A stretch of 64,000 bases of DNA from Escherichia coli (GTDB taxonomy: Bacteria > Pseudomonadota > Gammaproteobacteria > Enterobacterales > Enterobacteriaceae): assembly GCF_013315695.1 (NCBI RefSeq), contig NZ_CP054353.1; one strand, given 5' to 3'. Of the stretch, positions 4,428 to 10,347 are shown piece by piece. Below the pieces are notes generated by a model. That model was not told where the DNA came from. It worked only from the letters and a program-made list of their open reading frames with translations, and did no database searches. How positions within the stretch are numbered: the first letter of the stretch is position 1; each line of letters opens with the position of its first letter. Made by a program: the position numbers and the translations under genes.

Positions 4428-5420
4428 CTAGTCAATGGACAGTTTATGGACACTATCAGCCAGCGGATTAAAGCTAATCGCATCCTGTAAAAAGTCCGGT
4501 GAAAAATGCGCATACGTCATCGTTTGTTGAATCGTGGCGTGCCCAAGGATTCGCTGTAACGTAACGATATTTCCGCCGTTCATCATGAAATGCGTGGCGA
4601 ACGTGTGACGCATAACGTGAGTCGCCTGACCTTTGGGTAAATCCGGTTTCACCTCCTGAAGGATATCCCGAAAACGGATGTAATCAGCCTGGTACAATAG
4701 CCCGGTTTTTCGGGTTTTTATCAACGAAAGCACCGTATCAGAAACAGGAACCGCGCGGGATTTTCCATTCTTTGTGTTAAAGAACATTACGCGGTTACCA
4801 ACGATATGCTCACCACGTAAGCCAGCTGCTTCCCCCCACCTTGCGCCAGTGGAAAGACACAGAACAGCAACACGACGCGCATCCCCCTCGAGTCGTTCAA
4901 GCAGCCGATCAATCTCATCATCTGAAAGAAAGGCCATTTCTGTATTCCTGACCTTGAGCTTACGTATTCCACGCACCGGGTTTTCGTTATGGAAAACCTC
5001 CGCATCAATCAACGCAGTAAACATTGCAGACAAGGCGCACAAATCACGATTAACACTGGAGGGCATTAATCCGGCCTGTAATTTGTCTGAACGATACCCG
5101 AGCATAAACTTTCGCGTCATCTCACTGGCGCGGGGGTCCCTCATCTCACGGTTTATTTTTTCCAGCCTGACCCTGTAAGTATCCCCGTAAGGCTGATTCC
5201 GGCCATCAAGCACCCACCAGGCATCTATCAGTTCGGATAACCGACGCTGATCAGCTGGCTTGGCCTGCCACGGTTTATCGTGGAAATTCTGCAAAACATA
5301 CCTTTCAAACTCCTGTGCCTTTGACTTCAGGGTAAAAATCTTACGGATCCGCTTTCCTTCCGTCCCTTGCGGTCTTACATCAACCTTATAACGCCCGTCT
5401 TTGAGTTGCTTAATCGACAT
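4428..5420 (-). CDS. int: tyrosine integrase, P2 Int-like
   Basis: 330 aa from ATG with GGAGGGG RBS; strong similarity to P2 Int as recalled (LSTGARWGEAA, HxLRHTFATHF, GHATIQQTMTYAHF). Confidence 0.92.
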   Translation of the reverse strand: MSIKQLKDGRYKVDVRPQGTEGKRIRKIFTLKSKAQEFERYVLQNFHDKPWQAKPADQRRLSELIDAWWVLDGRNQPYGDTYRVRLEKINREMRDPRASEMTRKFMLGYRSDKLQAGLMPSSVNRDLCALSAMFTALIDAEVFHNENPVRGIRKLKVRNTEMAFLSDDEIDRLLERLEGDARRVAVLCLSTGARWGEAAGLRGEHIVGNRVMFFNTKNGKSRAVPVSDTVLSLIKTRKTGLLYQADYIRFRDILQEVKPDLPKGQATHVMRHTFATHFMMNGGNIVTLQRILGHATIQQTMTYAHFSPDFLQDAISFNPLADSVHKLSID

Positions 5421-5489
5421 GATTAGCCCCTCCAACGGATGAATCAGCCGTACACTCTCTACGGGATGAAACCCGCTCGATGTACAGCG

Positions 5490-5831
5490 TTAGCCAGCAT
5501 TGCGACGAGATCGGGGTGATTTTTGGGTAATGCCGATTGAAACCTGATCGCCCTCCGACTGAATGGAGCCATCAAGAGAGAGAGCCGGAGCTATCTGACC
5601 GGCAGCAGGCATTGTCTTATCTTTTATTAGCCACATCATGTATTTTTCAAACCGATCAACTTGGAGAACCATCTCAACAATTTTGGCTCTGGCGCTTTTT
5701 TGCCCTGATTCATAGTTCCTTATGGCAGCTAAAGACAACCCCGTAATATCCGCAAATTCCTTTTGCGTTAGCCCTTCAGCCTTGCGTATTTGACGTAGCT
5801 TTTTTGCATAGTCTATTGACAAGATAACCAT
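5490..5831 (-). CDS. immunity repressor, P2 C-like HTH protein
   Basis: HTH (LTQKEFADITGLSLAAIRNYESG) and C-terminal GQIAPAL motif resembling P2 C as recalled; divergent from the early operon. Confidence 0.75.
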   Translation of the reverse strand: MVILSIDYAKKLRQIRKAEGLTQKEFADITGLSLAAIRNYESGQKSARAKIVEMVLQVDRFEKYMMWLIKDKTMPAAGQIAPALSLDGSIQSEGDQVSIGITQKSPRSRRNAG

Positions 5832-5852
5832 TTGAGTATTAACCTCTCGCGA

Positions 5853-5874
5853 AAGATACTCGTGCGAGTATCTT
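5853..5874. promoter_or_regulatory. candidate operator: 22-bp palindrome aagatactcg-tg-cgagtatctt in the C/early-operon divergent region
   Basis: 10-bp perfect inverted arms between divergent repressor and early genes; a related half-site tgagtatt lies at 5833-5840. Confidence 0.45.
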
Positions 5875-5935
5875 TTATAAACCTAAACAAACCTTCATGA
5901 GGCGCGACAAGCGCACCAACGCAAGAGGATAGCAA

Positions 5936-6460
5936 ATGCGGAAGTCAATTGCCGATAAAGAGTTATCTGACACACAAGCCCTTCAGGAAAACGACAGCAT
6001 CACCGAATCCGTTGGCGCGGCAAACGACGATGAACACCAAGAGGAAAAGAAAAAACGCACCTACAAAAAAGGGGCAACCTTGCGACTAGATGGCCCGGTA
6101 GCCGGACTTTGCTCACTTGAAAAAGGGGCAGCCTATATCGGGTTGACAAAAGCTGCATTGCGCGTGGCGCTTCAGCGAAATCAGATGCCTGGACACAAGA
6201 CCCGTTCAAACCCTGAAGATGAAAATTCGGATGGCGTGTGGTGGTTTAACGCCAGAGAGTGGGACAAGCTGGCTGACGAACTACCAGAATGCGAGCCGCC
6301 AGAATGGCACAACTGGAAAAGCTACTGGACATACGACCGACAGAAAAGAAAGTTTTCCCCGGCAAACAAAGAAGACTGCCAGACCATCAATGGAAAGCGG
6401 GTTTACACAGGAAGAAAGTCAAAACTGGAGCAACACCAATACAGTGGAGGCAACCAGTGA
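5936..6460 (+). CDS. first early-operon gene, Cox/excisionase-position protein with putative HTH and long C-terminal extension
   Basis: ATG with AGAGGA RBS; occupies the cox position divergent from C; 174 aa is about twice P2 Cox. Confidence 0.5.
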   Translation: MRKSIADKELSDTQALQENDSITESVGAANDDEHQEEKKKRTYKKGATLRLDGPVAGLCSLEKGAAYIGLTKAALRVALQRNQMPGHKTRSNPEDENSDGVWWFNAREWDKLADELPECEPPEWHNWKSYWTYDRQKRKFSPANKEDCQTINGKRVYTGRKSKLEQHQYSGGNQ

Positions 6461-6544
6461 CATCAAAACAAACCGGCAACAGCGAAATCCCAGGAATGAG
6501 ATTTCGCCGCAGATGCTGTGGAAAATGGTTGTTATGCAAGCAGC

Positions 6545-6955
6545 CTACCAGGCTGATGGATGATCATCATCAATATCAAACACATTTCTGTAAAAACGAG
6601 AATGTTGCAAGGGATGAATAAGCGACCCCCAACAATCATAAATATCAGCCAGTTCGAACACATCGTATGAGAGATGTTGAGCAAACGATTCGGCACCTTC
6701 AAAAGACTCAAACACCTCATCATACAAGTGAATGTTTTCAGGATACGAAAGTGACAAGCAAAAACCAGACGTAGATTCCGTAACCAAGAAGACAAGGTGA
6801 TATTTATCATTCACCAGTGACTGAGCACATTTTTTTACAGAGCGAAGAATCACAGGGGAACGCGCGCCAATACGAAAGAGTTCTGCATGAGCACGGGCAT
6901 CAACAAAACTGTGAAACCCCTCACTTCTTGCAAGCTCACGTTCGGCAGCACGCAA
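6545..6955 (-). CDS. hypothetical protein on the strand opposite the early operon (only non-ATG start available)
   Basis: 136-codon frame fills an otherwise gene-free 540 bp; first codon is TTG and there is no in-frame ATG. Confidence 0.3.
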   Translation of the reverse strand: MRAAERELARSEGFHSFVDARAHAELFRIGARSPVILRSVKKCAQSLVNDKYHLVFLVTESTSGFCLSLSYPENIHLYDEVFESFEGAESFAQHLSYDVFELADIYDCWGSLIHPLQHSRFYRNVFDIDDDHPSAW

Positions 6956-7000
6956 AACCCAAAATCACCGCCCAGATTCGGATGTAAGGATAATTTTCAT

Positions 7001-7264
7001 ATGAATAAAGAGAAATCTCCGGATTATTTTGTGAAACGATTACAGGATGCAACAGAGTCAATGTTGATTGCCCTGAATAATTACTCTTACGAAGAGGCCG
7101 TAACGGTACTTGAGTGGATAAAGGAAAAAATAACGGAAGACAGCATCGTCAAGATGCAGAGTATCAACATCTCCCGTGACAAAACATTTCCACTGCGAAT
7201 ACCGCCAAAACGACGACTGGTTTACTCGATACCAGTCTCAATGCAGTGCAAATTGCCGAAATAG
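7001..7264 (+). CDS. early-operon hypothetical protein (87 aa)
   Basis: ATG at 7001 with AAGGA RBS; ORF-track frame 6887..7264 trimmed. Confidence 0.55.
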   Translation: MNKEKSPDYFVKRLQDATESMLIALNNYSYEEAVTVLEWIKEKITEDSIVKMQSINISRDKTFPLRIPPKRRLVYSIPVSMQCKLPK

Positions 7265-7416
7265 TTTATGAGAAAACATAAATACTCCTTTGTGTGGTTG
7301 GTTATCGTTACAACAGTTCGGGCAAGAATTGCAAGGCGTAACGAAATTACCACAAAACCATGCGCCGGGCATGGCTAAAAACCCGGCACAAATTCACAGC
7401 AGCAGTAGGGATTTTT

Positions 7417-7761
7417 ATGAAGAAACCGGGAAATTTTTCACAGCAGAATTTTCGAACAAGTGCCGAACGCCACGTTGCACGCCAGCACTTCCGCAAAAAT
7501 AGTGCGACCACAACCACTGAAATCCATGCCACACCAGACGGTCACCCGGTAAAACAAACCGGCAAGCACACCTGGACGATTGGCGACACTGGCATCGTTA
7601 TTCACAAAAGTTTTCGCAGCCCTGTTACTGGCAGATTTAATTTCACCCTGACTCGCGGGGATGATTACTTCGGACAGGACTTCACATTTTTTGAAGCCTT
7701 AAGAACGGCAGACAGATTAATCAGCGGCCTGCGTTTTCAATATCCGGGAAGCAAGCACTGA
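7417..7761 (+). CDS. early-operon hypothetical protein (114 aa)
   Basis: ATG at 7417 after AGGGA; ORF-track frame 7360..7761 trimmed. Confidence 0.55.
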   Translation: MKKPGNFSQQNFRTSAERHVARQHFRKNSATTTTEIHATPDGHPVKQTGKHTWTIGDTGIVIHKSFRSPVTGRFNFTLTRGDDYFGQDFTFFEALRTADRLISGLRFQYPGSKH

Positions 7762-7779
7762 TAAATAAAGGATTCAGCC

Positions 7780-8022
7780 ATGATCGAAGCCTACAAAATA
7801 CTTATCAATAACGCGTTGCAACGTTATCACTTTGAACTCGCAAACCGGGGCGTAACTAAGGATGAAAGCCTTCGTAACTCACTGCGCGGCGCAATTATGG
7901 GGCTATACAACTGCGCACTGGGCAGCGATGACCGTGAAGCGCTGGAAGAATTAAAGTCGATTATGACAGAACTGTTTGAAGGTGAAATTGTTGAGCCTTA
8001 CTTCACAGGGGTAGCCGCATGA
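7780..8022 (+). CDS. early-operon hypothetical protein (80 aa)
   Basis: ATG start; stop overlaps the next start (ATGA). Confidence 0.55.
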   Translation: MIEAYKILINNALQRYHFELANRGVTKDESLRNSLRGAIMGLYNCALGSDDREALEELKSIMTELFEGEIVEPYFTGVAA

Positions 8023-8357: not shown

Positions 8358-8588
8358 ATGAGAACAGCCGAATCACCCGGCAGAAAAATAACCGCCAGAC
8401 CAGCTAACCATCATGCACATATCAGCATTGCCGCAAGAAAAGCCGAGCGTGCGCATATCTGCGAATTGCTGCATGACCTGGTTAACACAGCGAGAGAGAA
8501 GCACACCTCCCCGGAGGAAACCTGTTCATCCATTGAACGACTGATTGCAATACTCGCCAACCCAGACGAACTGAAGGGGTGCGCATAA
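8358..8588 (+). CDS. early-operon hypothetical protein (76 aa)
   Basis: ATG at 8358 with AGGAG RBS; stop overlaps the exonuclease start (TAATG). Confidence 0.55.
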   Translation: MRTAESPGRKITARPANHHAHISIAARKAERAHICELLHDLVNTAREKHTSPEETCSSIERLIAILANPDELKGCA

Positions 8589-9169
8589 TGAACCATCTCA
8601 TGATTGACACCGAAACACTGGGTAACGGACCGGACGCAGCCATATTCACGATTGGGGCGGTGTTTTTCGACCCGTTCACCGGAAAGCTGGGCAAGCAGTT
8701 TGAGAAATTCATCGACCCGGTGGATTCAGAACGCAACGGCGGAACCGTCAATGCAGCCACCGCTGTATGGTGGGCCGGACAATCCGTGGAAGCCAGAGCC
8801 TGCCTGCGCAACGCAGATGGAACAGAGCTGGCAGCAGTGACCGAATTTCTGGCGTTCATTTCACGCAATATGCATGACGAAAGCCCGGGCAATTCACTGA
8901 ACATATGGTGTAAGGGCGCATCCTTCGATTTCCCGATCCTGAAATCCGCCATAACACGCACAGCCGGAGAAAAAAGCATCCCCTGGTGCTACTGGAACGA
9001 GCGCTGTATGCGCCCGCTTATCGCCATGGCTGAATCAACTGGATGGAAAATGCCAGGCAGATCAGGCAAAGAGACCATTGCTCACACCGCGCTGGGCGAC
9101 GCCGTTTACCAGGCAAAGGTCGTGTCAGAAATCTGGCAGCGCTTCACAACACCATTCCTGAACATATGA
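8588..9169 (+). CDS. 3'-5' exonuclease, DEDD (DnaQ-like) family
   Basis: 193 aa; MIDTETLG (Exo I D-x-E) and HTALGDA (Exo III) motifs. Confidence 0.75.
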   Translation: MNHLMIDTETLGNGPDAAIFTIGAVFFDPFTGKLGKQFEKFIDPVDSERNGGTVNAATAVWWAGQSVEARACLRNADGTELAAVTEFLAFISRNMHDESPGNSLNIWCKGASFDFPILKSAITRTAGEKSIPWCYWNERCMRPLIAMAESTGWKMPGRSGKETIAHTALGDAVYQAKVVSEIWQRFTTPFLNI

Positions 9170-9178
9170 GGTGAAGCC

Positions 9179-9406
9179 ATGGTCGCCATCCTGAATGTGT
9201 GTTGCTGCCCCCCCCTGAACGTGGAAAGAAAAGCCCGCGCATCGCTGCGTTTATTCCGCGACGGCGTGCGGAATTTTTCACGCATAAAACCCCACGACTA
9301 CCTGGTAATAAGAATCGGTTTTCGCTGGCGATTGCTGAGCAAAAACAACGGGGCGTCATGGGATTTATTAACGCACGAAACCTATAACAAAGAGGCCGCG
9401 TTATGA
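9179..9406 (+). CDS. hypothetical small protein (75 aa) between exonuclease and Dam
   Basis: ATG with GAGGTG RBS; stop overlaps the dam start (ATGA); odd composition (CCCPP). Confidence 0.35.
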   Translation: MVAILNVCCCPPLNVERKARASLRLFRDGVRNFSRIKPHDYLVIRIGFRWRLLSKNNGASWDLLTHETYNKEAAL

Positions 9407-10347
9407 GCAAAGAACTGTTATCCGGCACGCCGCTTAAATGGGTGGGCGGAAAAAGTCGCATCATGAACACACTGAAGGCGCATCTGCCAGAAGCAGACTG
9501 CCTGGTTGAGCCGTTTGTGGGTGGCGCATCGGTATTCATGAACACCAGTTACAAGCGTTACATCCTGGGTGATTCCAATGGTGCGCTGATTAATTTCTAC
9601 CGGCAAGCCAGGGACAACACCGACAGCCTGATCGACGAGGCGAAAACCCTGTTCCTGAACCACAACAACAGGGGTGACTATCTCATCATTCGCGAAACCT
9701 TTAACGCAGAGAATCATGCCTTCCTGAACAGCAGAACGGGAATAAGCGACCGCCGTGAACTGCGACTGGCCGCCATGTTTTTGTACCTGAACCGACACAG
9801 CTTTAACGGTTTGTTCCGCGTGAACGGAAAAGGCGATTTTAACGTGCCTTTCGGCTGCTACCGCAAGCCCTACTTCCCTGAGCGTGAAATCCGCGCATTT
9901 GCAGACAAGGCAAACAGCACCCGAACGCTGCTTATCCACGCAGATTTTAAGGATACGCTGAACTCTGCCAGTCACCTGTTCGGCATGGGCAACACGCTTT
10001 GCGTGTACTGCGATCCCCCTTACCTGCAATTCAGTGGCCGGGACAATTTTACCGCCTACGGAAAACCATTCGATGAAGACGAGCACGTTCGTCTGAGGGC
10101 AGCGCTCGACCGCCTTTCACAGGAAACGGGCGGCATGACCAGCATCACCATCTCCAATTCCGACACACCGGAAACACGACGCATTTATCGGGGTTACCGG
10201 ATGAACTGCATACAGGCACCACGAAGCGTTGGCGCAAGAACCCGGGAATCAGCACCGGAGGTTATCGCCACCCTGAGATGCATCACATCCGCCTTATCAA
10301 CGGTTCGCACTTCTGCGCCACGAACATGGAAGAAGTACGCGTGCTGA
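9403..10347 (+). CDS. dam: DNA adenine methyltransferase, Dam family
   Basis: PLKWVGGK, LVEPFVGGASVF, FLYLNRHSFNGLFR and DPPY motifs; about 35 extra C-terminal residues versus E. coli Dam. Confidence 0.85.
   Translation: MSKELLSGTPLKWVGGKSRIMNTLKAHLPEADCLVEPFVGGASVFMNTSYKRYILGDSNGALINFYRQARDNTDSLIDEAKTLFLNHNNRGDYLIIRETFNAENHAFLNSRTGISDRRELRLAAMFLYLNRHSFNGLFRVNGKGDFNVPFGCYRKPYFPEREIRAFADKANSTRTLLIHADFKDTLNSASHLFGMGNTLCVYCDPPYLQFSGRDNFTAYGKPFDEDEHVRLRAALDRLSQETGGMTSITISNSDTPETRRIYRGYRMNCIQAPRSVGARTRESAPEVIATLRCITSALSTVRTSAPRTWKKYAC

Follow-up and report, generated by a model that had tools for sequence, protein, structure and literature searches.

A minus-strand open reading frame lacking an ATG in a P2-like Escherichia coli prophage as the probable remnant of a gene interrupted by a nonsense codon

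Described systems and the prophage locus

The phage P2 genes old, tin and fun(Z) are non-essential accessory genes that occupy a swappable slot, are distributed patchily among similar prophages and are expected to be produced in the lysogen; the defence hotspot of P2 lies between gpA and gpQ (PMC9122126). In the Listeria excludon and in the convergent-transcription switches of the P2/186 type, an operon transcript is full-length antisense to the opposite gene. At the protein level, YegP of E. coli and SO_3888 of Shewanella have a tandem beta-beta-beta-alpha fold, the YegP/DUF1508 fold, to which the literature assigns no function. The proposals made for it include a Whirly/PC4-like sensor of single-stranded nucleic acid, as in Menshen NsnA (PMC12065111), induction by stress and occurrence as the N-terminal domains of Bub ubiquitin-like proteins (10.1101/2024.11.21.623966), and association with the capK/capS regulators (PMC13373217). 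Another related case is that of nonsense pseudogenes with a spurious downstream start, which have one early in-frame stop and are otherwise intact, and in which gene finders shift the start to the next TTG or GTG after a Shine-Dalgarno-like sequence.

The window, a stretch of 64,000 nucleotides of an E. coli contig (NZ_CP054353.1), contains a P2-like prophage integrated next to dmsA. The gene under study, hereafter X, occupies positions 6545..7000 of the minus strand as a full frame of 151 codons and a stop, which is interrupted at codon 12 in the window. Like old, tin and fun(Z), X appears to be a non-essential accessory gene in a swappable slot with a patchy distribution among similar prophages, and it would likewise be produced in the lysogen. 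X differs from the P2 exclusion genes in that it immediately follows the first early gene, is embedded in the early operon in antisense orientation and has no PADLOC match; its locus, between the cox-like and DUF4761 genes, is outside the gpA-gpQ hotspot. The likeness of X to the excludon and to the P2/186-type switches is purely one of gene geometry. X shares the tandem fold with YegP and SO_3888, with undetectable sequence similarity; however, it has longer linkers between the repeats and an extra conserved C-terminal tail, it is acidic and confined to P2-like prophages, and it is always found head-to-head with an 87-aa gene. The single early stop and the intact remainder are shared with the nonsense pseudogenes, but unlike in the usual case, the shortened PGAP model has also been applied to intact alleles.

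X lies on the same strand as the tyrosine integrase (4428..5435, minus strand) and the C-type HTH immunity repressor (5490..5831, minus strand; Pfam HTH_3, 3e-10, and RefSeq annotation), inside the rightward early operon and antisense to it. The first early gene (5936..6460, plus strand, 174 aa) is cox-like and convergent with X; its score against Phage_Cox was 25.3 bits, where the cutoff is 27.5, and it matched phrog_23196, a transcriptional regulator. The 87-aa partner gene on the other side of X is followed on the plus strand by DUF4761 and DUF4754 genes, an exonuclease, a ParE-like gene and a Dam methylase. The initial annotation described a 540-bp stretch without a plus-strand gene, and the gap of this length between the cox-like stop at 6460 and the next ATG at 7001, which the minus-strand ORF fills, indeed contains no conserved plus-strand gene.

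X and its partner belong to a swappable cassette of 986 bp (6477..7462), which also takes in a hairpin, a conserved intergenic element and the start of the DUF4761 gene as far as codon 15. The prophage of strain SW070917, which is near-identical elsewhere, is homologous to the window up to 6476 and again from 7463 onwards, and in place of the cassette it carries 292 bp with an unrelated 64-aa gene. The cassette was found in 5 of 5426 complete E. coli genomes and at four loci in IMG/VR, and its absence from sister prophages was counted in favor of the dispensability of X. X has been damaged independently three times, by a nonsense codon in E. coli, an internal deletion in Yersinia and a 3' replacement in Salmonella, and the partner is intact in all three cases. 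Therefore, X is considered to be non-essential and repeatedly lost.

In the Yersinia enterocolitica prophage (L029, 3600-4080), which is P2-like and located at the cpxP/cpxRA site, the internal deletion of about 300 bp keeps both ends of X and is bounded by a short TGAG microhomology, as seen in the comparison with L030 (3921-4700). A 68-aa plus-strand ORF called in L029 is antisense to the retained 3' end of X, and the same ORF overlaps the intact X of L030 by 107 nt. In the Salmonella copy (L037 469-1000, compared with L003 1114-1700), a mosaic junction is located in X at approximately codon 108, where the 3' third is replaced by unrelated sequence toward a different 93-aa gene and repressor, leaving a truncated ORF of 116 aa (P0006, P0009). 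In the same slot, other P2-like phages carry small counter-oriented genes, encoding 63 aa in vB_EcoM-569R5 (L042 5990-6181) and 60 aa in SEN5 (L044 1266-1448), which suggests that the site behind the first early gene is one where reverse-oriented genes recur in this phage group.

Reading frame, protein family and nonsense allele of gene X

The ORF listing confirmed the minus-strand ORF of 136 codons at 6545-6955 with a TTG start, which had been reported in the initial annotation as having no ATG. The 136-aa translation contains no internal methionine and, therefore, only TTG or GTG can start the ORF in the window. However, the same frame runs 45 nt upstream of the TTG (6953..6955), past an in-frame TGA (6965..6967), to an ATG (6998..7000), so that the absence of an ATG holds for the ORF as listed and not for the whole gene. 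Upstream of this point the window sequence has an in-frame TAA, after which no start is possible before the ATG at 7000. The translation of 6545-7000 on the minus strand begins with MKIILTSESGR, continues after the stop with FWVLRAAERE and ends in HPSAW before the terminal stop codon. The TTG is codon 16 of this frame and corresponds to a leucine that is invariant in the family. With a TGA at codon 12, the longest remaining ORF begins at the TTG of this internal Leu-16. The ORF at 6545..6955 is thus very probably the downstream remnant of a real gene of 151 codons, which starts at ATG and is cut by a TGG to TGA change at codon 12, and the TTG start is an artefact of a recent nonsense mutation and of inconsistent start calls in RefSeq.

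Related proteins form a small family, which is found only in P2-like prophages of Enterobacteriaceae. Six related clusters were recovered when 1.84 billion representatives were scanned exhaustively with HMMER, and nine in a profile search of 5.8 billion proteins; the members with a named source are from E. coli, Salmonella, Klebsiella and Trabulsiella. All full-length members have 148-154 aa and the same methionine start, with 37-56% identity among homologues, and share the N-terminal block M-K/N-I/L-x-L-x-S-E-x-x-K-W-x-W-x-L. Trp-14 and Leu-16 are invariant, and position 12 is tryptophan in six of the seven homologues and phenylalanine in one. All seven full-length homologues extend over 15 conserved residues upstream of the TTG position to the ATG. 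The window allele differs at codon 12, TGA in place of TGG, whereas the 11 upstream codons and the ATG are conserved across the family. The initial annotation had considered a real gene with a non-canonical start: the conserved protein-coding family bears out the gene, and the ATG found 15 codons upstream in every homologue removes the non-canonical start. It had also named disruption of the frame in relatives as evidence against the gene, and the outcome was the reverse, as the relatives keep the frame and the window is disrupted. The conservation of the frame in related prophages was established by eight other sequences, whose homologues are intact and have 148-154 aa. A chance ORF was rejected on the basis of these homologues and of the substitution pattern, in which, for every divergent pair, changes were most frequent at third codon positions and least frequent at second ones (e.g., 50/39/79 and 18/12/40 in first/second/third order, codon-aligned).

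Neither the 136-aa nor the 151-aa protein had a significant match in Pfam, NCBIfam or PADLOC, and the only PHROGs match of X was phrog_28512, its own family of unknown function. None of 50,697 sequenced phage records contained X or the partner, and no mention of the protein accessions was found in the literature.

Alignment of the window with two complete genomes showed a single relevant difference, at plus-strand base 6965 (alignment column 486): STEC17-183 has a C, where the window and MSB1_4I share a T, which turns codon 12 from TGG to TGA. Among the 20 E. coli copies examined, codon 12 was TGA in 3 (the window, L002 of MSB1_4I and L017) and TGG in 17 (L001, L004-L011, L018-L023). The 136 residues encoded past the stop do not differ between the window allele and the intact alleles and, therefore, the lesion is taken to be recent. 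The representative P0001 obtained in the large protein search has 151 aa, is 99% identical and carries 15 extra N-terminal residues, MKIILTSESGRWFWI; besides the stop codon, it differs from the window X at V15I.

The annotation of X in RefSeq is inconsistent. The 151-aa form starting at the ATG (WP_047645004.1) is annotated as an intact CDS in the complete genomes G1/2, G6/7 and G8, which are outside the 20-copy count of codon 12. In two complete E. coli genomes (L001 and L002), PGAP annotates the 411-nt CDS of 136 aa as a "hypothetical protein". The 136-aa forms starting at TTG (WP_225379704.1 and WP_225374596.1) occur also in genomes with an intact TGG at codon 12, and this model is used in MSB1_4I, STEC17-183 and several drafts with codon 12 intact. 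The records in this comparison were NZ_CP075652.1 (L001 3146-3556), NZ_LR898874.1 (L002) and NZ_CP060083.1 (L034 146-601), together with L018-L023.

As read from the sequence, the TGA ends translation after 11 residues, and the window allele is inferred to be a recent pseudogene or a strong hypomorph. It is expected to yield no protein, or at best traces by read-through of the UGA or by a restart at the TTG. Read-through by tRNA-Trp would restore the wild-type residue, in small amounts at most, whereas the product of re-initiation at the TTG, located 9 nt past the stop, would lack the first strand of the first domain and half of its second strand.

Predicted structure, partner gene and alternative readings

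The AlphaFold2 model of X, built from the seven-sequence alignment, had a mean pLDDT of 84.2 and a pTM of 0.77. The model consists of two beta-beta-beta-alpha repeats at residues 2-45 and 70-117, where strand 1 (2-8) and strand 2 (11-18) have a pLDDT of about 95. They are followed by a C-terminal tail of approximately 25 residues, HPLQHSRxYRxMFDIxDDHPS, which is modelled with low confidence and is highly conserved. The Foldseek search of the PDB matched the model to E. coli YegP (2K8E, probability 0.99) and Shewanella SO_3888 (2K49, probability 0.98). Both are UPF0339/DUF1508 proteins, and the tandem beta-beta-beta-alpha pseudo-dimer was recovered at the level of the fold only. At the level of sequence, P0001 and P0002 had no Pfam match to DUF1508 (PF07411) at E<=10, the hmmsearch of the X family profile against PDB sequences did not find any YegP chain, and hhalign of X against YegP gave a probability of 0.5%. 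The search of viral structures in BFVD returned weak single-domain DUF1508-like matches only, which do not indicate a function.

The model and the fold search show intact X, as predicted, to be a soluble, acidic (pI 4.9-6.0) tandem pseudo-dimer like YegP/UPF0339 (DUF1508) with a conserved tail. Since the predicted relationship is one of fold only, X is described as YegP-fold-like rather than as a demonstrated member of DUF1508. In this model, strand 1 is lost through the nonsense codon, and with initiation at Leu-16 most of strand 2 would be lost as well, so that the 136-aa product, if made, should be structurally compromised.

The partner gene (7001..7264, plus strand) encodes a basic protein of 87 aa with two predicted helices and a conserved tail, FPLRIPPKRRLVYS, and stands head-to-head with X at zero spacing. 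It abuts X in seven of seven lineages (E. coli, two Salmonella types, Klebsiella, Trabulsiella and two others), in which it has 86-88 aa, an identity of 47-59% and a pI of 9.3-10.2. In all seven, the two start codons abut as the palindrome CATATG (6998-7003 in the window) with no intergenic base, although the proteins have diverged by 38-59%; the junctions compared with that of the window were those of L003, L012, L016, L030, L032 and L033. The Shine-Dalgarno sequence of each gene is located in the first five codons of the other. In E. coli, the Shine-Dalgarno sequence of X is badly spaced, with GGAG 16 nt upstream of the ATG, unlike in L003, L012, L016 and L030. The change of partner codons 3-4 in E. 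coli from T/S-P to K-E is the one by which the well-spaced Shine-Dalgarno sequence for X was lost.

The partner had no Pfam, PHROG or PADLOC match, and two other members of its family weakly matched the unannotated phrog_7272 (E 2e-4). The plus strand of the gap has one ORF of notable size (6887-7264), which extends the partner in frame. A longer partner of 125 aa, starting at the ATG at 6887 and overlapping X, was rejected because the extension is stopped within 4-8 codons in all other lineages. The occurrence of the partner without X was also rejected, since the only apparent case, the Yersinia prophage, is the internal deletion that keeps both ends of X. With regard to a possible type II toxin-antitoxin-like pair, X and the partner have opposite charges and are divergent rather than co-transcribed, and no toxin or antitoxin domain was found in the domain scans of the two. 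In AlphaFold2 modelling of X and the partner fused by a (GGGGS)6 linker, with a paired seven-lineage alignment, a confident complex was not obtained (the pTM was 0.53 and the pLDDT of the partner was about 50-65); this fusion is a weak test.

A functional gene that truly starts at TTG, or at GTG, with a product of 136 aa is quite improbable. In the window, such a product would be reached by termination at the UGA and re-initiation 9 nt downstream. It is established for lacI and T4 rIIB that translation can restart after a nonsense codon. In the window, the motif GGTGAT, which matches the extended Shine-Dalgarno sequence over 6 nt, lies 8 nt before the TTG and overlaps the TGA; on the basis of the sequence, this makes a weak restart at the TTG conceivable. 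PGAP and other callers also annotate the 136-aa form where the upstream frame is open, including on TGG alleles; this counts against the ATG start, as the gene finder sees some start signal at the TTG. However, the TTG is an internal leucine that never varies. It is preceded by 15 residues that all lineages conserve and that form, in the model, the first strand and half of the second strand of the first YegP-like repeat (pLDDT of about 95); without these strands, the product is unlikely to fold. In addition, the conserved ATG abuts the partner in all lineages, and RefSeq uses this ATG in three genomes. It is very improbable that the TGA allele is instead a leaky hypomorph, in which read-through by tRNA-Trp at a low rate keeps X at a reduced and possibly advantageous level. 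Near-cognate read-through of UGA in E. coli inserts tryptophan, and at a former Trp codon it would insert the native residue. No second lesion is present in the allele, which is shared by three independent assemblies, and two of these differ elsewhere in X, so that the allele has persisted. Against this, the UGA-U context is not among the leakiest stops, the absence of further decay is explained equally well by a recent mutation, and the repeated destruction of X in other lineages points to simple loss.

The initial annotation had also considered that the interval might be untranslated or RNA-coding. In this reading, 6461-7000 would be a non-coding leader or spacer, or an RNA gene, of the early operon, and the ORF would be fortuitous. 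One part of this stands: the plus strand has no conserved gene over the interval, so that the early transcript would carry about 540 untranslated nt, antisense to X, and the minus-strand gene is inactivated in the window and elsewhere. However, X is coding. The protein homologues with 37-56% identity, the frames intact in eight other sequences, the substitutions biased to third positions and the confident fold prediction from only seven sequences all argue for a protein, and no Rfam match was found at E<=1 over 5300-8000 on either strand. The non-coding reading is already largely refuted and is extremely improbable. With a 151-codon gene interrupted at codon 12 as the preferred reading, the outcome is an ordinary one, in which an exotic start codon and a hidden RNA would both be ruled out and the ORF would be what is left of a nonsense-broken accessory prophage gene.

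Proposed role and regulatory elements of the early region

The arrangement of the genes suggests how X would be expressed. To reach the partner, the rightward early transcript would have to cross about 540 nt antisense to X, and the mRNA of X would have to begin inside or beyond the partner gene. Since the early transcript would be full-length antisense to X, X and the early operon should be expressed in a mutually exclusive manner. X would be produced in the lysogen, where the early promoter is repressed, and would be silenced in lytic growth by the antisense early transcript. We infer that X is a dispensable accessory gene in the lysogeny direction, which the early transcript would silence. 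The product would bind nucleic acid or the basic partner protein rather than act as a catalyst. The opposite charges and the conserved tails of the two proteins suggest that X might bind its partner, which the fusion model described above does not support.

A further, rather unlikely proposal is that X and the partner constitute an undescribed two-gene switch module, where X, produced only in the lysogen as an exclusion or defence factor or as a modulator of the lysis-lysogeny decision, would be shut off twice in lytic growth. At the RNA level, the early transcript would cover the ribosome-binding site of X, and at the protein level, the basic partner would bind the conserved acidic and histidine-containing tail of X. 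Neither X nor the partner matched a defence family in PADLOC (0 matches). If the proposal is true, the CATATG abutment, conserved across a protein divergence of 38-56%, would be the structural signature of the coupling, and the YegP/DUF1508 fold would acquire its first experimentally tractable function.

The family is of modest interest in itself. It is rare (about nine clusters among 5.8 billion proteins), unannotated and found only in prophages, and it appears to be a relative, unrecognisable by sequence, of a fold without an assigned function. X is tied head-to-head, at zero spacing, to an early gene that is conserved, yet it has been repeatedly lost. It would provide a compact case of temperate phages embedding a gene of the lysogeny direction in a lytic operon, and it may serve as a handle on the role of YegP-like domains.

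The signals for the expression of X were sought in the sequence around it. A stable hairpin (6479..6510, minus strand) with a 14-bp stem is located approximately 35 nt past the X stop and is followed by UUUGUUUU; the z-score of the whole segment is only -1.6. It is possibly, on weak grounds, a non-canonical terminator of X, and the terminator scan, in which this hairpin was included, called none. For X, neither the consensus scan nor the position-weight-matrix scan over five lineages gave a convincing sigma-70 promoter, and the latter revealed no strong promoter at a conserved position. An A-rich run similar to a -10 element, about 22 nt upstream of the X ATG, was rejected, as it is explained by the conserved D-F-F codons of the partner. 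No LexA box was present in 5400-7800.

According to the window and the annotations of L001 and L004, the exonuclease of the early region (approximately 8579-10347 on the plus strand) is Rv2179c-like and of the 3'-5' type, and the methylase is of the Dam type. A DUF4406 gene is also present, and the ParE-family toxin-like gene in this region has no annotated antitoxin adjacent to it. The cox-like gene is about twice as long as P2 Cox, and only its residues 58-129 match Phage_Cox. A separate Cox of 93 aa is encoded further downstream in the Trabulsiella, Yersinia and SEN5-type relatives. Because of this separate Cox and the sub-threshold Phage_Cox score, the first early gene of the window may not be the Cox orthologue.

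A conserved intergenic element (7277-7390, plus strand) is located between the partner and the next early gene, which is the DUF4761 gene here and Cox in SEN5 and Trabulsiella. It contains ACATAAnnACTCCTT, which on the plus strand resembles an anti-Shine-Dalgarno sequence, as well as TTACCAC, which is invariant, and a small hairpin, CCATGC-GCCGG-GCATGG (7361-7377), where three pairs change on both sides between haplotype groups. No Rfam match to the element was found. The element is also present in L003, L012, L016, L024, L029, L032 and the Salmonella phage SEN5 (L044 1501-1565). Phages without X and the partner also have the element, which is therefore not restricted to the cassette; it could be an internal promoter, an operator or an RNA element of the early operon.
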